DNA of 64,000 bases from Acidimicrobiales bacterium. GTDB taxonomy: Bacteria; Actinomycetota; Acidimicrobiia; Acidimicrobiales; RAAP-2. Shown here one piece after another: positions 53,825 through 64,000 of the stretch. The notes under the pieces were generated by a model. The model saw only the letters and a list, made by a program, of their open reading frames with translations. It searched no databases and was not told where the DNA came from. Each line of letters opens with the position of its first letter. Positions within the stretch are counted from its first letter, which is position 1. The DNA lies in contig JBEKRV010000015.1 of assembly GCA_049517675.1 (NCBI GenBank), positions 4,148 through 68,147 of the forward strand. Reading direction: 5' to 3'. A program made the translations under genes and the position numbers.

Positions 53825-53951
53825 GGGACCTCCCGGTGGCGGGGTGCCTCCCCCGTTGCGGGGAGGTGATCGGACGTCCCTACAGTACGGGAACGGGTCC
53901 CGTCGGAGCGGCCCGACCCGGAGCGGTGGCCGCTGGTCGCCGGCCAGTAGT

Positions 53952-56461
<2,510 letters not shown>

Positions 56462-56517
56462 TGGCGCGGACCGGCGCGACGTCGCCGACCGACACGGCGA
56501 TCCGCGCCGGTGTTCGG

Positions 56518-57468
56518 TCAACGACCGGCGAACCAGCGCCCCAACTCGTCCATCCCCCGGTCCACGCCGACCCGTGGTCGCCACCGGAGGACCCGCCGGG
56601 TGTCGGACTGGTCGAACCAGTGGGCCACCGACAACTGCCGGGCGGCGAAGTGGGTGAGGGGCGGCTCCCCGCCGGGCCACATCCGTCCGATGGCGCGTCC
56701 GGCCAGGGCTGCCACCGGAGCGGGTACCGAACGGACCCGAGGGTCCAACCCGGCGGCCTCCAGGATCCCCTCGACCAGTTCGGCCAGGGGACGGGGGTCG
56801 CCGCCGGTGACCACCCACGCCTTCCCGGTCGCCTCGTCGGAGTCGGCGGTCCGGTCGAGGCCGGCCACGATGGCGTCCGCCGCGTCGTCGACGTAGGTGG
56901 TGTCGACGAGCGGCCTGCCGTGGTCGGGAAGGACCAGGCGGCCCTGGCGGGCACGCTCGACGATGCGGCCGATGAGCTGGGTGTCCCCCGGCCCCCAGAC
57001 GAGGTGGGGGCGGACCACCACGGTGGGGACCGTGGTGTGCTCCAGGACATAGCGCTCGGCAACGGCCTTGGACCGGGTGTACGCGTCCCGTCCCCGGTAC
57101 GTGGCGGGCTCGGCGCCGGCGCCGACCGCCGGCCCGCCGTCGAAGGCGACGGACGGTGACGACACGTGCACGAGGCGACCACAGCGGGCCGCGGCGGACA
57201 CGACGTTGCGGGAACCGACCACGTTGACCCGGTAGGCGCGGTCCCACCCGGGCCGGGGTGCCACCAGCGCCGCCAGATGGATGACGGCGTCGTGTCCCGC
57301 CGCCGCCGCCAGGACGGCCGCCGGATCGCTCACGTCACCGAGGACATCGGTCGTCCCGACCCCGCTCGGCGAGCGCTGGAAGCAGGTCACAAGGTCGCCC
57401 CGTGCGAGCAGGGTCGGCGCCACGGCACGCCCGATCAGGCTCGAACCCCCGGTGAGCAGCACCCTCAT
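56518..57468 (-). CDS. oleD: NAD(P)-dependent epimerase/3-beta-HSD family reductase, OleD by synteny
   Basis: 316 aa with MRVLLTGGSSLIGRAV and YTRSK (YxxxK). It lies directly downstream of the fused oleBC gene. Confidence 0.75.
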   Translation of the reverse strand: MRVLLTGGSSLIGRAVAPTLLARGDLVTCFQRSPSGVGTTDVLGDVSDPAAVLAAAAGHDAVIHLAALVAPRPGWDRAYRVNVVGSRNVVSAAARCGRLVHVSSPSVAFDGGPAVGAGAEPATYRGRDAYTRSKAVAERYVLEHTTVPTVVVRPHLVWGPGDTQLIGRIVERARQGRLVLPDHGRPLVDTTYVDDAADAIVAGLDRTADSDEATGKAWVVTGGDPRPLAELVEGILEAAGLDPRVRSVPAPVAALAGRAIGRMWPGGEPPLTHFAARQLSVAHWFDQSDTRRVLRWRPRVGVDRGMDELGRWFAGR

Positions 57469-57487
57469 CGTCCGGCGGCCCGGTCGC

Positions 57488-59956
57488 TCATCGTCCGGCG
57501 AGGAAGTCGGCGGCGTCGGCCGCCAGTGCGGTCCGGTCGATCTTGGACTGGTGTCGCCGATCGACCGGGAGGGCTCCTTCGAGGACCGCCGCCACCCGGT
57601 GGGTGCAGGCGTCGCGGACCGCGACGCGCAACGGGCGGACGGCGACCCGGAGCGGGCCGACGCCCTCGACGACGACGCACAGGACCTGGCAGCCGGCCGG
57701 GCCGACTCCCACCGCGGCCACCTGTCGGCCGATGGCCTCCCGGATCGGCCCTTCGACGCCGACGCTGGTCAGCGGTCCGTCCGCGGTGTCGATGACGTGG
57801 CGGCGCCTGCCGAGCTGGAAGAGCAGACCGTCCTCGACATAGCCGACGTCGCCGGTGCGGTGGAACCGGAGCCCGTCGTGGACGGACCAGGTCGCCGCAT
57901 CGGCGGACCATGCCGCGTCGTATCCGTCGAACATCCACGGCGCGTGCACCAGGATCTCTCCCCAGCCGTCCCCGTCGTCGAGCGGACGGGTGGGATCGTC
58001 GAGCGGGGTGATCACGACGGTGCACCCCGGTACGGGGCGACCGGTGCAGTTGCCACCGAGCCGGCCCACCCGGTCGGGACTGGTCCCGTCGGTGACCGGA
58101 AGGCACTCGGTCATGCCGTAGGGCGCACGTACATCGCCACCGGTGATCCGACGGATCCCCTCGACCAGGTCGACGGGGACGGGCGCCCCGGCCAGCATGA
58201 CCAGGTCGACGGGGGCCGTCCGTCCCCCGGCGGTGGACAGGATCCGGCGGGCCGAGGCGGGGGAGAGCCACGCCACCGTGACCCGGGCCCGACGCAGTGC
58301 GGCGGCCAACTCGTCGAACCCGAGCGCGGAGGGCTCGGCCACGTCGAAGTCGGGACGCACGCAGGTCATCTGCAGCGACGGGGCGAGGAGCATGAACGGG
58401 CCGAACGAGGTGGTGAACGCGTCGCCCGGCCGCATCCCGAACAGGGGCGCGACCACCTCGCGCTGGGCGGCCAGGGCCCCGTGGGTGTAGCGGACCGCCT
58501 TGGCCGGGCCGGTGGCCCCGGAGGTGTGGACGATGGCGGCGACGTCAGCGGCTCCGACCGCCTCCGGGACGATCGCCGACGTCGGGGCCCCGGCCCGGCC
58601 GAGGTCGACGGCGCCCGGGAACGGGGTGAAGCAAGCCATGGTGGATCCGGGGGCGAACCGGAGGGCCCGGGCGAGCGCCAACGTGGCCGCTGTCCCGACG
58701 GTCCACGACGGGGCGCTCGCCCGGATCAACGTGCGGAGCCGGCGGATCCCGGCCGATGCGTCGGCCACCACGGGGATCCCTCCGGCCTTCCACACCGCGC
58801 CGGCGGCGACCAGGAGCTCGCAGCTCGGGGGGACGAGCAACGACACCCGATCGCCGGGGCGCATGCCGCCGTCGATCAGGGTGCGGGCGGCTGCCGAGGA
58901 ACGGGCGTCGAGGTCGGCCCAGGTCAGCACCCCGTCCGGTCCGTCGTAGGCGGGCGAGGTGTCGTCGCTGCGGTCCCCGAGCGCGGCCAGTACCGACACG
59001 AATCCCGTGTGGTCCCCATCGACCCCGGCCGTCGTCGACGGGTGTCTGAGTCGGTCGAGCCATCGGGCGACGACGTCGCCCACCGGTGCGTCGAGCGTCA
59101 CCAGGTGGCCGGCGTCGACGAACCGCTCGACATCGGCATGGCGTATCCGGGACCGCAGGTCGGCCAGGAACCGGTCGTGGAACACCGGGTCCCGGCCGCC
59201 CCAGAGCAGCAGGGTCGGTCGGGGGTGGGCGTCCAGGACGGCGGCACACTCCTGGAGCGCCGCGTAGGACGGGTCGTCCGGGGTGAGGGGGATGTCGGCC
59301 ACGAAGTCTCGGACGGCCTCACGGCGGTCGGCACCCCGGTACGGGGCGCGGAGCGCGTCCCGGTGGGTGCGCGACGTCATCATCGCCGTCCCGGCCACGA
59401 AGGCGGACGTCCGGCGGCAGCTGAGGTCGACCAGGGTCCGGGCGGCGGCGATGAGTGGCGGGACGGCGACGTCGGCCGGCTTGGCCACGGCCGTGTCGGC
59501 GAGGACGAGGGCCTCCACCTCGAGTGAGCCCGAGGCGCCGACGGCGATCGGCCCGCCCCAGTCGTGGGCGGCGAGGACGAAGGGCCCGTCGACCTCCTGG
59601 TGGCAGAAGTTCACCAACTCGAGCACCCGATCGGCCAGGCGCCGGGGTCGGCCCCGCTCCGACCATCCCATTCCGGTCTGATCCACGGCGACGACCCGCC
59701 AGGCGGGTGCCAGGGTGGTGAGGACGTCGCGCCACACGTATGCCCAGGTCGGGTTCCCGTGGACGCACACGATCGTCCCATCCGGACCGGGCCCGGTGTC
59801 GAGGACGTGCCAGTCGACTGGCCGGCCGTCGGATCCGTCGATGGTGACCCGTCGGGACCACGCCGGGTCGAGTCCCCATGACGCGAGCTGGTCGGCACTC
59901 GGGGTCGGCGGCCGCGGCGACACCACGGCTCCGGTGGCCGGCCGGGTCGGGGTCAC
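57488..59956 (-). CDS. oleBC: Fused OleB (haloalkane-dehalogenase-like alpha/beta hydrolase) - OleC (AMP-dependent synthetase)
   Basis: 822 aa. The N-terminal hydrolase domain has VHGNPTWAYVWR and AAHDWGG. The C-terminal adenylating domain has IVHTSGATGPAK and YRTGDVGY. Fusion of these two domains is the actinobacterial ole arrangement. Confidence 0.8.
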   Translation of the reverse strand: MTPTRPATGAVVSPRPPTPSADQLASWGLDPAWSRRVTIDGSDGRPVDWHVLDTGPGPDGTIVCVHGNPTWAYVWRDVLTTLAPAWRVVAVDQTGMGWSERGRPRRLADRVLELVNFCHQEVDGPFVLAAHDWGGPIAVGASGSLEVEALVLADTAVAKPADVAVPPLIAAARTLVDLSCRRTSAFVAGTAMMTSRTHRDALRAPYRGADRREAVRDFVADIPLTPDDPSYAALQECAAVLDAHPRPTLLLWGGRDPVFHDRFLADLRSRIRHADVERFVDAGHLVTLDAPVGDVVARWLDRLRHPSTTAGVDGDHTGFVSVLAALGDRSDDTSPAYDGPDGVLTWADLDARSSAAARTLIDGGMRPGDRVSLLVPPSCELLVAAGAVWKAGGIPVVADASAGIRRLRTLIRASAPSWTVGTAATLALARALRFAPGSTMACFTPFPGAVDLGRAGAPTSAIVPEAVGAADVAAIVHTSGATGPAKAVRYTHGALAAQREVVAPLFGMRPGDAFTTSFGPFMLLAPSLQMTCVRPDFDVAEPSALGFDELAAALRRARVTVAWLSPASARRILSTAGGRTAPVDLVMLAGAPVPVDLVEGIRRITGGDVRAPYGMTECLPVTDGTSPDRVGRLGGNCTGRPVPGCTVVITPLDDPTRPLDDGDGWGEILVHAPWMFDGYDAAWSADAATWSVHDGLRFHRTGDVGYVEDGLLFQLGRRRHVIDTADGPLTSVGVEGPIREAIGRQVAAVGVGPAGCQVLCVVVEGVGPLRVAVRPLRVAVRDACTHRVAAVLEGALPVDRRHQSKIDRTALAADAADFLAGR

Positions 59957-59960
59957 CGCC

Positions 59961-60977
59961 CTACCAGATCAGCTCGGCGGCGGCGCAGTTGAGGCCCGAA
60001 CCGATGCCCATGAGGAGCACACGCTCGCCGGGCGAGATCTCGTCGGCCACGGTCGACAACGTGTACGGCACCGCTGCCGGACCCATGTTCCCGAAGTTCG
60101 GGTAGGTGAGTGGGACCAGGTCCATGTCCACGCCGAGCAGGTCGCACAGCCTGCGGGTGTGCACGGCGGACACCTGGTGCATGACGTATCGGTCGCACGT
60201 CTTCCAGTCCCAGCCGGCGGCGACCGAGGCGTCGAACGCCTCGCGGGCGAGGGTCAGGCCGTTCTCGAGCAGTGCGGCGGTGTCGGTGCGCATGGTGTCG
60301 AGGTCCCCGACGCAGAGGTCGTGGCTGTCGGTGGCGGCCCGGGAGATGCCGCCCAGGAACCGGTGTCCCCCTGCACGCGGCCCGCCCATGACCATGGCCG
60401 CGCCCCCCGATCCGAGGGTGAGGGAGGCGAACTGGTCGAACACGTCGGTGGCACCGGCCGTCGGCAGGCGGAGCCGCGCGATCGTGGCCAGCTGGGTGTA
60501 CCGGCTTCCCTCGCCGTCGACGACCAGGACCGTGTCGGCCTGGCCGGTCTCGATGGCCATCGCACCGATCTGCATGGCGTTGACGAAACCGAGGCACGCA
60601 TTGCCGATGTCGAAATTGACGCACTCGGGGCCCAGACCCAGACGGTGGTGGACCGAACAGGCCACGCTGGGCTCGAGGTGGTGCTTGCAGACCGAGGTCG
60701 AGATGAGCATGTCGACCTCGGTGGGGGCGATGTCGGCGAGCTCGAGCGCGCGGATCCCGGCGAGCGCAGCCGCCTCGTCGAAGGTGACGTCCTCGGGCCA
60801 CCAGCGGCGCTCCACGATCCCGGCGACGGACTCGAGCAGTCCGGGTCGGATGCCGGTCCGGTCGTAGGTCTCGGCCAACTGCTCGTCGATCCAGGCCGAG
60901 GTGACGACCTCGGGCGCCTCCGCGTGACCCACGCTCCAGATCGTCGGACGCGTGAATTCGGTTCGGGGACGCACCAC
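59961..60977 (-). CDS. oleA: OleA thiolase (FabH-like condensing enzyme for head-to-head Claisen condensation)
   Basis: 338 aa. TYDRTGI, STSVCKHHLEPSVA, NFDIGNACLGFVNAM and LVVDGE parallel my recollection of Xanthomonas OleA. Its stop lies 4 nt from the oleBC start. Confidence 0.8.
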   Translation of the reverse strand: MVRPRTEFTRPTIWSVGHAEAPEVVTSAWIDEQLAETYDRTGIRPGLLESVAGIVERRWWPEDVTFDEAAALAGIRALELADIAPTEVDMLISTSVCKHHLEPSVACSVHHRLGLGPECVNFDIGNACLGFVNAMQIGAMAIETGQADTVLVVDGEGSRYTQLATIARLRLPTAGATDVFDQFASLTLGSGGAAMVMGGPRAGGHRFLGGISRAATDSHDLCVGDLDTMRTDTAALLENGLTLAREAFDASVAAGWDWKTCDRYVMHQVSAVHTRRLCDLLGVDMDLVPLTYPNFGNMGPAAVPYTLSTVADEISPGERVLLMGIGSGLNCAAAELIW

Positions 60978-61014
60978 AACAGGTTACGGCCTTCCGCGGG
61001 ACGTCCGGCACGGT

Positions 61015-61054
61015 GCGGTCCCCGACCCCACGGCCCGGTCGGGTCGGGGACCGC
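61015..61054. repeat. Perfect inverted repeat / hairpin in a divergent intergenic region
   Basis: GCGGTCCCCGACCC (61015-61028) pairs with GGGTCGGGGACCGC (61041-61054): 14 bp with a 12-nt loop. It lies 38 nt upstream of the oleA start. Confidence 0.7.
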
Positions 61055-61160
61055 CCGGCCGTCGTTCCGATCGCCTCCGACGGGTCGGTCGTCCCGCCCA
61101 CCCGGCGGGCCGCAGCCGGCGGGGACCTGCCGGCTCGCGCTCCCGATGGACCGTTGATGA

Positions 61161-61184
61161 CGTATCGGTGACGCCACCGATACG
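61161..61184. repeat. Perfect 24-bp palindrome
   Basis: CGTATCGGTG-ACGC-CACCGATACG in a locally lower-GC patch, 111 nt upstream of the ATG at 61295. Confidence 0.7.
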
Positions 61185-61294
61185 AGCAGGCGACCCCAGG
61201 ATGAACTCTTCGCGACACGGCGATCTGGTTACGCACGGTCGTCGGACCCGATGTTAGGAAGGGCCAGCTTCGGTCCCCCCATGGAGGTTCTTCG

Positions 61295-64000
61295 ATGTCC
61301 AGTCGTCGCTCGTCCCCATCACGACTCGTGTGCTTCCTGACCGTCGGCGCGGCCACCCTGGCCGCGGTCGGTGCGTCGATGAGCGTGGCCATCACGTCCG
61401 TCAGCACCCCGGCTGCAGCATCGCCGTTGTCCGTCGGTTCGACCACGTTCTCGGTGGGCACGCCTGCGCTGGCATCCATCACCAACGGCACCACGGCCGC
61501 CCCGTGGAACACCTCCCAGGGTGACCCGTCCTCCACGGCGTACCCGAACAGCGATCTGTTCCCGACGTACACACCCGGCGGCCCGACCACCGGGACGGGC
61601 GCCTCGACCGAGCCCAACGTCGCCGTGTACCCGTCGTCGAACAGCGGCACCGACGGGGTCGCGCCCTACCCGAGCGGAACGGTGGGGACCCCCGGCCCGC
61701 TCGACGGCTACTGCGGCACCGGCAACCAGGTGGCCGAGTCCGCCGGCACGCCGGCGCGCCAGCCTGCCGGGACCACGCTTCCCTTCGCCCCCGCCTACTT
61801 CCCCCACGTGGTGAAGAACGCCGACGGGTCGCTCACCGGCTACTTCGACTACCGACCCAAGGATGCCGACGAGGCGCTGGTGGCGGCCACCTCGACCGAC
61901 AACGGCAAGGACTGGACCTACGACGGCGAGGCCCTCGAGGAGAACCCGGGCTACTGCCCCTCTGCTGACATCAACGACGACGGCGAGGGCCACGCCAACG
62001 TCATCACCGTCGGCGGCAACGCCTACCTGTACACGCTTCCCCGGGCGGCCGGCGACATGCAGGGCGTTGGGATGATCGTGCACCAGTTCAGCCCCACCGA
62101 GTCCAGCCCTCTGGCCGGCCTCCCGGCGACCGAGAAGGTGGGGATCGACCCCGACGCCTTCGTGCCGACCGGTTCGACGACGGTCAGCGTGACCCACGGC
62201 ACGGCACAGACCATTCCGCTGACCTCGCTCGGTACTGCCGGATCGCCGGAGCAGTTGGTGGTGGGCAGCTTCGTCGACGTCACCCAGACCCCGGGCGTGC
62301 CGACGGTCGTCACCTGCACCGGCCTCGGCACCAGCTCGCTCACCGGGTGCACCACGGCATCGGGCAGCAGCGTGTCGGTGCATGCCGGCGACCTCGTCGA
62401 GCAGGTCATGGGCTTCACCACCCCGAGCTCCGATGTCGGCCTGGTGATCCCCGCCGGACCCAACACCACCAACGGTGACGGTGGGCTCGCCTCCTTCACG
62501 ATCGACTCGACGAGCGGCAACCCCGGCTTCGCCGACCCGCTGACCGGGACGACGTTCAACAACAACGCCCCCAACCGTCTCTACGTCAACGGCGCCGCCA
62601 TCTACTGCTCGCAGGCCAATGCCAACCCCACCACCCATATCGAGGACTGCACCACCGGACCCACCGGCTCCTCGATGACGCTCTCCTCGCTGGAGCCGAT
62701 CACCGGCGACCCGATCATCCCGGCGACGTCCTACAGCCCCGGCGCGGGCGACGGCATGACGAGCGGCCTGGTCGCCCCCGACGGCATCGTCGGCGTGCTG
62801 CCCAGCTACCCCAACAACGGCACGGTCCCGTCCGGTGCCACCTACGTCATGTACACCGAGAAGGAGCTCAGCTACTACGTGGCGGGCGAGACCGGAGGGA
62901 GCGGGACGTTCAACGCGACCACCGGCCAGACCATCTCCTTCACCCCCGGCACCTACATCTCGTCCGACATGCCGTCCAGCGAGCCCGTCGGCGGGTACAC
63001 GGTCCAGATGGGTGCCACGGCCCCCAGTCCCAGCACGTCGACGGCCATCATCACGGTGACCTGCACCACCCTCAACGAGACGTCGGGAAGCCTCGGCGGC
63101 TGCAAGGTGCCGAGCGCCTACAACGGGTGGACGTACGCCTCCAATTCCCTCATCGGGGCTCCGGGGGCCACGACGCTGGCCCAGTCCACGCTGTCGCTGA
63201 CCGGCGAGGGCAAGTCGAGCGACATCTCGAAGCTCAACAAGAACAACGAGGACCTCACCGTCCTGAGGGTGGCGTACACCACCAACGGCGTGACGTTCTC
63301 CTCGTCGGGACTGACCAACGGGGGCGTCATCAGCGGAGCCGGCTGCGAGACCGGCAGCTGCTCCAACGGCGGCGCCTACGACGACATCTCGAGTCCGGCG
63401 GCGACGGCCAACCCCACCGTCAACGGCCAGATCGACCTCAACGCCTACGCCGCTCCGGGCACACTCGATGCCACCGAGATGCGCTGGGTCGGTTCGGCGG
63501 GCACCATCGTCACCAACCCGAACGGAACCTACGGCCTGTTCCTCTCCGGCGCCTGGGCCGCCGACGGGGACAGCGACGCCTTCAACCAGATCTTCTACAG
63601 CGAGTCGAGCGACGGCGAGCACTGGTCCGTCCCGCAGATGGTCCTGAGCACCGACTACACGTTCGCGGCCTCGGTGGCCCAGGACCAGGCCCTGGCCCAG
63701 GGACATGACGTCCCGCTCGGAGTCAGTGCCTACTACGAAGGTCGGGCCTACGGTCCGAGCGTGGTCCAGAACAACGATGGCACGCTCACCATGATCTTCG
63801 CCGGGTACCGGCTGCCGAAGACCATCTCCGGTGCCGGGACCACGGTGGGCACCAACCCGAATGCACCGTGGACGGTCGGGGCGACCGACCCCGCGCTGTA
63901 CCGGAACATCCTGGCGGTGACGCTCACACCGTCCACCGATGCCACCTCGACCCTGACCAGTCAGACGACGGTCACGTCGAGTACGGCGAACCCGGTTGTC
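61295..64000 (+). CDS. Large secreted protein, Thr/Ser/Gly/Asn-rich with Asp-box (BNR)-like motifs (partial; continues past the window end)
   Basis: This ORF is not in the ORF track. ATG at 61295 lies 7 nt after GGAGG. I translated frame 2 by hand and found it open for all 902 codons to base 64000, with strong GC3. The signal-like N-terminus reads MSSRRSSPSRLVCFLTVGAATLAAVGASMS. Motifs STDNGKDW (61892-61915) and SSDGEHW (63605-63625) are present, along with several paired Cys. Confidence 0.85.
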   Translation, partial: MSSRRSSPSRLVCFLTVGAATLAAVGASMSVAITSVSTPAAASPLSVGSTTFSVGTPALASITNGTTAAPWNTSQGDPSSTAYPNSDLFPTYTPGGPTTGTGASTEPNVAVYPSSNSGTDGVAPYPSGTVGTPGPLDGYCGTGNQVAESAGTPARQPAGTTLPFAPAYFPHVVKNADGSLTGYFDYRPKDADEALVAATSTDNGKDWTYDGEALEENPGYCPSADINDDGEGHANVITVGGNAYLYTLPRAAGDMQGVGMIVHQFSPTESSPLAGLPATEKVGIDPDAFVPTGSTTVSVTHGTAQTIPLTSLGTAGSPEQLVVGSFVDVTQTPGVPTVVTCTGLGTSSLTGCTTASGSSVSVHAGDLVEQVMGFTTPSSDVGLVIPAGPNTTNGDGGLASFTIDSTSGNPGFADPLTGTTFNNNAPNRLYVNGAAIYCSQANANPTTHIEDCTTGPTGSSMTLSSLEPITGDPIIPATSYSPGAGDGMTSGLVAPDGIVGVLPSYPNNGTVPSGATYVMYTEKELSYYVAGETGGSGTFNATTGQTISFTPGTYISSDMPSSEPVGGYTVQMGATAPSPSTSTAIITVTCTTLNETSGSLGGCKVPSAYNGWTYASNSLIGAPGATTLAQSTLSLTGEGKSSDISKLNKNNEDLTVLRVAYTTNGVTFSSSGLTNGGVISGAGCETGSCSNGGAYDDISSPAATANPTVNGQIDLNAYAAPGTLDATEMRWVGSAGTIVTNPNGTYGLFLSGAWAADGDSDAFNQIFYSESSDGEHWSVPQMVLSTDYTFAASVAQDQALAQGHDVPLGVSAYYEGRAYGPSVVQNNDGTLTMIFAGYRLPKTISGAGTTVGTNPNAPWTVGATDPALYRNILAVTLTPSTDATSTLTSQTTVTSSTANPVV

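Follow-up and report, generated by a model that had tools for sequence, protein, structure and literature searches.

An intact oleA-oleBC-oleD cluster of actinobacterial type in an uncultured peat Acidimicrobiales bacterium, with a very probable role in head-to-head olefin biosynthesis

A 64,000-nt stretch of DNA (the window) from the metagenome-assembled genome (MAG) of an Acidimicrobiales bacterium was analysed, and it very probably carries an intact oleA-oleBC-oleD operon of the actinobacterial type for the biosynthesis of long-chain olefins by head-to-head condensation. The cluster lies at positions 56518-60977 on the minus strand and comprises three genes. The first, oleA (59961-60977, minus strand; 338 aa from the first GTG, TAG stop), encodes a predicted acyl-CoA:acyl-CoA alkyltransferase, i.e., a thiolase of the head-to-head Claisen type. 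It is followed by oleBC (57488-59956, minus strand; 822 aa, GTG start, TGA stop), a fusion of a hydrolase to a synthetase, and by oleD (56518-57468, minus strand; 316 aa, ATG start, TGA stop), which encodes a predicted NAD(P)H-dependent 2-alkyl-3-oxoalkanoate reductase of the extended short-chain dehydrogenase/reductase type. Only 4 nt (GGCG) separate oleA from oleBC and 19 nt separate oleBC from oleD, short gaps that would fit co-transcription of the three genes. The first-pass annotation, made from the letters of the sequence, had described three co-directional and tightly packed minus-strand genes, and its coordinates and both gaps were exact to the base.

The G+C content at third codon positions is 0.92 in oleA, 0.91 in oleBC and 0.90 in oleD, with 0.50-0.57 at second positions and about 72% G+C in the local DNA. 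The three open reading frames (ORFs) are therefore real coding frames, and no frameshift was found within oleA-oleBC-oleD. Peat and soil metagenomes of three separate studies contain contigs that match the window exactly or almost exactly throughout the cluster. One metagenome contig of 3435 nt (58778-62212, with 11 differences) links oleBC to oleA and runs on through the intergenic region into the beginning of the next gene. Because these independent contigs bridge the cluster, the gene arrangement is not an artefact of assembly or a chimera. For oleBC the true start may lie 11 codons downstream, where an identical database protein (P0001, 811 aa) begins.

The identity of the thiolase was examined with hidden Markov models, structures, catalytic residues, a sequence pattern and a tree. 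The OleA protein scored 388.7 bits against the NCBIfam model NF006720 (PRK09258), well above its cut-off of 285, which was passed in none of 14 control genomes. In a search of the PDB the top twelve matches were all structures of OleA from Xanthomonas campestris (XcOleA; 3ROW, 3S21, 4KTI, 5VXD and others), which aligned end to end with 255-260 bits, whereas the best FabH-like chain reached 70 bits. In the alignment to 3ROW the residues Glu117, Cys143, His285 and Asn315 of XcOleA correspond to E102, C128, H267 and N297 of the window protein, and these four are invariant across 70 cluster representatives, down to 29% identity. Glu117 of XcOleA is the OleA-specific base and is supplied by the partner subunit. 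The pattern EPxx[AS]x(14,18)DxxNACL, with which Surger et al. (2020) retrieved OleA sequences (PMC7158056), is matched at aa 102-129 of the window protein.

A maximum-likelihood tree was calculated from 124 rows, namely the window OleA, 22 named loci, 96 representatives and five FabH sequences from the window genome and four relatives. The five FabH rows were split from the 119 OleA-like rows with full support (100 in the Shimodaira-Hasegawa-like approximate likelihood ratio test), and the window OleA was placed inside an actinobacterial clade of 27 members with 99% support, beside Acidimicrobiaceae and Acidimicrobiales MAGs. One representative cluster of the OleA family carries the IMG label 'acyl-CoA:acyl-CoA alkyltransferase'. 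The representatives P0133 and P0137 were tried as proxies for Xanthomonas and rejected, since with about 284 bits to XcOleA they score barely above the window protein. Because these two are not stand-ins for Xanthomonas, it is the PDB search and not the tree that relates the window protein to characterised OleA.

If the protein were instead a FabH/KAS III paralogue serving to prime fatty-acid synthesis, its neighbours would be an unrelated acyl-CoA ligase and an epimerase. FabH/KAS III does share with it the thiolase fold and the Cys-His-Asn triad, and both have ACP_syn_III and ACP_syn_III_C, generic domains that are all that Pfam reports for the window protein. Database entries likewise name the protein '3-oxoacyl-ACP synthase III'. 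However, both FabH models score far under their cut-offs on the window thiolase (TIGR00747 with 93 bits against 292, NF006829 with 106 bits against 249), and the genome encodes a separate true FabH on contig 42, which lies above the TIGR00747 cut-off with 319 bits and reaches 49.5 bits to the window OleA. Both the OleA-type Glu102, which sits in an EPS motif, and a match to the OleA pattern are missing from this FabH. Together with the fully supported split in the tree and the strictly conserved linkage of the gene to oleBC and oleD, this leaves the FabH explanation with a practically negligible likelihood, and we count it as already refuted by the sequence tests. The thiolase, noted at first as FabH-like with OleA-type motifs and proposed for placement against both families by HMM and phylogeny, thus groups with OleA and apart from FabH. 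Head-to-head condensation of two long-chain acyl-CoAs without decarboxylation would be the reaction of the window OleA.

The second gene had been read as an 822-aa fusion of an alpha/beta hydrolase to an AMP-dependent synthetase, and this was borne out as an OleB-OleC fusion in which both sets of catalytic residues are intact. Pfam places Abhydrolase_1 at aa 61-291 and AMP-binding at aa 335-679. The N-terminal OleB domain (aa 1-305; 59042-59956, minus strand) is an alpha/beta hydrolase of the type of haloalkane dehalogenase subfamily III (HLD-III) and a predicted beta-lactone decarboxylase. It matches haloalkane dehalogenase structures, with 75 bits to 5ESR and about 57-62 bits to DhaA and the subfamily III enzyme 8CKP. 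When aligned to these structures, the catalytic pentad is found as N68 (in HGNP), D132-W133 (in DWGG), D256 (in GGRDP) and H284 (in GH), and all five residues are invariant in 113 of 113 full-length fused homologues. The HLD-III pentad, Asn-Trp plus Asp-His-Asp, is also conserved in OleB of X. campestris (PMC10503415). General haloalkane dehalogenase models of NCBIfam gave 76-89 bits on the domain, with cut-offs of 241-466, and no OleB-specific model was among the matches.

In three metagenome runs an in-frame insertion of 3 nt (CCT) was seen after position 59382, at about aa 192 of OleB and between the core catalytic motifs. It accounts for a sizeable share of the depth in the respective runs (55.6 of 85.2, 3.5 of 12.4 and 4.2 of 7.6) and represents a difference of one codon in length between co-occurring strains or close relatives.

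The C-terminal OleC domain (aa 323-822 plus the stop codon; 57488-58990, minus strand) belongs to the adenylate-forming enzymes (ANL superfamily) and is a predicted olefin beta-lactone synthetase. It contains the motifs TSGATGPAK (478), YGMTE (613), TGD (701) and GRRRH (716) as well as K805 in the place of the C-terminal catalytic lysine, and 102-113 of the 113 fused homologues retain the strict core residues. The best function-specific NCBIfam match is NF045786, olefin beta-lactone synthetase, with 193 bits (E 5.7e-57) at a cut-off of 900, followed by NF045785 with 126 bits at a cut-off of 850; the generic model PRK09274 scores higher, with 237 bits of the 478 set as its cut-off. No solved OleB, OleC or OleD was among the structures searched in the PDB, and the nearest ones to the OleC half were adenylation domains of non-ribosomal peptide synthetases and a malonyl-CoA synthetase.

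Within the OleC domain, aa 768-781 (57614-57655) form a tandem PLRVAVR-PLRVAVR. An insertion or duplication was considered as its origin and rejected, as the tandem aligns without gaps to xLRVAxxxLRxAVR in the homologues; a homologue of OleBC with 86% identity carries PLRVAGHPLRVAVR at this position. The tandem is therefore an older quasi-repeat that became exact in the window.

The product of the third gene, described at first as a reductase of the 3-beta-hydroxysteroid dehydrogenase/epimerase type, has OleD as its best match. Pfam assigns it to Epimerase/3Beta_HSD, and among the NCBIfam models NF042422 (2-alkyl-3-oxoalkanoate reductase OleD) ranks first with 251 bits (E 1.5e-74; cut-off 580), followed by a Shewanella-type OleD model with 195 bits, while the next non-Ole family, HpnA, reaches 73 bits. 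The Rossmann glycine motif is present as GGSSLIG at aa 7-13, and the Ser-Tyr-Lys triad as S103/S104 and Y130xxxK134.

For calibration of the missed cut-offs the same NCBIfam library was run on the clusters of an Ornithinicoccus MAG (Micrococcales) and of a Modestobacter sp. In both, OleA lies above its cut-off (434 bits for Ornithinicoccus, 450 bits for Modestobacter), and OleC (293 and 275 bits) and OleD (288 and 337 bits) lie below 900 and 580, respectively. These two actinobacterial clusters thus miss the OleC and OleD cut-offs as well, and therefore the shortfall does not single out the window. The curated equivalog cut-offs for these two proteins appear to be tuned to proteobacterial sequences.

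These scores bear on a second explanation, namely that the cluster ends at a beta-lactone or another lipid, like the oleACD clusters for lipstatin and nocardiolactone, and that the hydrolase serves as, e.g., a thioesterase or a dehalogenase. In favour of such a reading, OleC and OleD fall below the curated Ole equivalog cut-offs, and the hydrolase domain matches general haloalkane dehalogenase models only, again below their cut-offs. Moreover, Actinobacteria do have beta-lactone clusters built from homologues of OleA, OleC and OleD (PMC7064751), and the lipstatin (LstABCD) and nocardiolactone clusters share with the window OleA-, OleC- and OleD-type enzymes and the beta-lactone intermediate predicted for it (PMC7064751). 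However, the known beta-lactone clusters are entirely without oleB, and it is by their intact OleB domain that olefin clusters can be told from the oleACD clusters for beta-lactone natural products (PMC7064751). In the window OleB is not only present but fused to OleC, with the full HLD-III pentad that is invariant in the 113 homologues. The lipstatin and nocardiolactone clusters, in addition, often have two OleA-like subunits and tailoring enzymes, whereas the window has one OleA and no tailoring genes: no P450, glycosyltransferase or second OleA-like subunit stands beside the cluster, where the neighbours are metX and a gene for a secreted protein. The layout, finally, is the same as in the olefin-producing Micrococcales (PMC7158056). 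We thus regard a cluster that stops at the beta-lactone or another lipid as very improbable.

The olefin reading gains from the conservation of the whole arrangement. In a locus survey with one genome per species and a 17-sequence OleA alignment as query, the 80 nearest named loci were taken, which show 51-76% OleA identity and all belong to Actinomycetota; no locus of M. luteus or Xanthomonas is among them. The order oleA-oleB-oleC-oleD in one direction was found in all 80, as far as the contig extends, so that the claim of an actinobacterial arrangement (PMC7158056, PMC7064751), made in the first-pass annotation, is matched throughout these loci. Of 74 loci, 66 have B and C in a single open frame, and in the remaining eight the two frames overlap in different reading frames, as an assembly frameshift would give. 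The loci come from Acidimicrobiaceae, Acidimicrobiales, Ilumatobacteraceae, Thermoleophilia, Nanopelagicales, Nitriliruptoraceae, Jiangellales, Pseudonocardia and Ornithinicoccus, and the cultured carriers among them are Blastococcus capsensis, Modestobacter lapidis (DSM 100206) and a Modestobacter sp.; Rhabdothermincola salaria is a further cultured carrier.

According to Beller et al. (2010), as cited in PMC7158056, Micrococcus luteus and the Micrococcales carry a three-gene operon of oleA, oleBC and oleD, and olefin production by fused ole clusters has been demonstrated in Micrococcales (PMC7158056). The window agrees with this operon in gene order, in the N-terminal position of OleB within the fusion, in the single OleA and in the tight spacing. 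The OleA of Ornithinicoccus falls into the same 99%-supported actinobacterial clade as the window OleA, and the NCBIfam scoring pattern is alike. Identities between the window and Ornithinicoccus are 52% for OleA, 48% for OleB, 36% for OleC and 52% for OleD. The difference lies in the host, which belongs to the class Acidimicrobiia. With the OleABCD system of X. campestris the window shares an OleA that aligns end to end at up to 260 bits and an OleB domain with the HLD-III pentad (PMC10503415), and Xanthomonas-based models are the best function-specific matches of its OleC and OleD. In X. campestris, however, OleB and OleC are separate proteins encoded in a cluster of four genes, and the window OleC (193 of 900 bits) and OleD (251 of 580 bits) stay far under the Xanthomonas equivalog cut-offs.

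Based on homology to the systems of X. campestris and M. luteus (PMC7158056, PMC7064751), and with the conserved sequence, residues and gene order as its observed part, the following pathway is proposed. A homodimeric OleA, acting through Cys128, His267, Asn297 and Glu102, would join two long-chain acyl-CoAs without decarboxylation to a 2-alkyl-3-oxoalkanoic acid, which OleD would reduce with NAD(P)H to the 3-hydroxy acid. The OleC half may then adenylate the carboxylate in an ATP-dependent step and close the ring to a cis-beta-lactone, and the OleB half would decarboxylate this lactone, which leaves a cis-alkene whose double bond is internal. In OleB, Asp132 would be the nucleophile, His284 the base and Asp256 the acid, with Asn68 and Trp133 as stabilisers. 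The fusion would hold lactone synthesis and decarboxylation on one polypeptide. The expected product is a membrane-associated long-chain olefin, the chain length of which would be set by the acyl-CoA pool and the specificity of OleA.

Upstream of oleA, a -10-like hexamer TAACCT (60981-60986, minus strand) lies 6 nt before the second GTG of the gene. A TANNNT hexamer 6 nt (once 8 nt) before an in-frame start codon was found in 12 of the 12 closest relatives (L019-L030, 66-76% OleA identity). The start codon linked to the hexamer usually aligns with residue 2 of the window OleA, and the upstream flanks of these relatives are otherwise dissimilar. The same placement occurs in only one of 67 more distant loci, many of which, as judged by eye, have a purine-rich Shine-Dalgarno-like run before an ATG instead. 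Because the conserved hexamer is positioned before it, the second GTG (60972-60974) is preferred as the start codon; it is probably the true start of oleA and would give a protein of 337 aa. From this placement the oleA mRNA is probably leaderless and starts at the second GTG (60974), and the distribution of the hexamer suggests that a leaderless oleA mRNA is specific to the clade of the window and its closest relatives. A consensus scan of 56300-61400 found neither a sigma-70 promoter nor an intrinsic terminator.

A perfect hairpin of 14 bp is located at 61015-61054, which is about -41 to -80 relative to the leaderless start proposed above. It was considered as a part of the operon and rejected, as in eight close relatives none like it was predicted upstream of oleA.

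Transcription was addressed with RNA data, in which one metatranscriptome contig of 184 nt from one RNA run matched exactly at 60873-61056, with a depth of 3 and no strand information; the hairpin falls within it. One such contig is too little to demonstrate transcription. This bears on a third explanation, in which the genes are intact but silent or marginally active and olefin is formed in traces only, as in several carriers among the Micrococcales. In Arthrobacter, Clavibacter, Dermacoccus and others, Surger et al. indeed detected olefins in trace amounts only, although the clusters are intact (PMC7158056). The RNA support consisting of a single short contig would agree with such a state, as would a patchy retention of the cluster, which 21 of 201 sampled genomes of the order and 3 of 13 sampled ones of the family possess. 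On the other hand, all catalytic residues are kept, the third-position G+C is as high as elsewhere, the frames contain no frameshift and the -10-like element is conserved in close relatives. The intact residues and frames and the conserved element therefore indicate purifying selection on an expressed operon, and a silent or marginal cluster is considered very improbable.

Several points weigh against an olefin-forming operon and have to be set beside the evidence in its favour. The host is an uncultured MAG, and olefin formation is predicted from its genes. OleC and OleD remain under the curated equivalog cut-offs, and the actinobacterial rows of the tree include none for an OleA that has been characterised (that of M. 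luteus, for instance). The metatranscriptome contig may be carried-over DNA, and it extends 82 nt upstream of the predicted leaderless start. With these points taken into account we infer that the host produces olefins, and the assignment of the locus as an ole operon stays very probable.

The host is a peat Acidimicrobiales MAG with a completeness of 89.8%, and the sequencing runs that cover the cluster best are peat metagenomes. Its closest OleBC relatives, with 86% identity, are found in MAGs of Acidimicrobiales bacteria, and the closest OleA locus, with 74% identity, in an Acidimicrobiaceae MAG from a bog. A full-length fused OleBC was present in 21 of 201 sampled genomes of the host order, in 17 of 149 genera. 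OleA above the cut-off occurred in 39 of 301 genomes of the host class and in three of 13 other genomes of the host family. The ole cluster is thus patchy in the host lineage.

In the literature consulted, oleABCD is reported from no Gram-positive order other than Micrococcales (PMC7158056), and the OleB-OleC fusion is called typical of Micrococcales (PMC7064751). Complete clusters outside this order were seen in MAGs of Candidatus Nanopelagicales (L062, L071), in Thermoleophilia MAGs (L034-L039) and in Blastococcus and Modestobacter (L092-L094). For Acidimicrobiia and related taxa, a literature search yielded no publication that deals with ole genes or olefins.

On the side of oleA the cluster is flanked by a divergent gene, which begins at 61295, runs to the end of the window at 64000 and continues to L018:443-4045 (contig C15), where it stops 50 nt before the contig end. 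It is a complete ORF of 1200 aa, and the protein starts with a signal-peptide-like N-terminus; about 890 aa are without a Pfam match, and they are followed by Big_3_5 (aa 893-985) and, from aa 990 onwards, by a pair of fn3 domains. The first-pass annotation had pointed to a divergently transcribed giant secreted protein as a noteworthy neighbour. The complete divergent ORF stands, whereas the adjacency is conserved in none of the 80 loci: no homologue of the secreted protein or of MetX was found within 7 kb of oleA in any of them. There is no sign in the sequences of a functional link between the ole cluster and the secreted protein.

On the other side metX (about 55420-56461, plus strand) converges on oleD, with 56 nt between the stop codons. 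The 836-aa ORF at 53951-56461 (plus strand) in which it lies is over-extended, as its match to MetX (homoserine O-acetyltransferase; NF047917, 533 bits) is confined to aa 491-835. What lies upstream in this ORF is probably part of a separate gene that is read in a different frame.

Neither the pathway and its enzymes nor the fused layout of three genes is new, and the cluster reveals no new mechanism. Only the host is mildly new, as it is not a relative of Micrococcus but an uncultured Acidimicrobiales bacterium from peat. The value of the finding lies in the distribution, with the ole operon in about one tenth of the sampled Acidimicrobiales genomes and in several other actinobacterial classes, which gives biofuel work more OleA variants to draw on. 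A further possibility is an input of alkenes by uncultured Actinomycetota to the lipid pools of peat and freshwater. As a speculative proposal, which we hold to be rather unlikely at present, fused ole clusters might be widespread in the abundant uncultured Actinomycetota of peat, soil and freshwater and these bacteria might have been overlooked as producers of the long-chain alkenes that occur in peat and lake sediments, with close relatives of the host using a leaderless oleA mRNA. The named loci behind such a wide distribution belong to Acidimicrobiales, Ilumatobacteraceae, Thermoleophilia, Nanopelagicales, Nitriliruptoraceae and Geodermatophilaceae, and the carriers among the Geodermatophilaceae (Blastococcus and Modestobacter) are cultured and hence testable for olefins.

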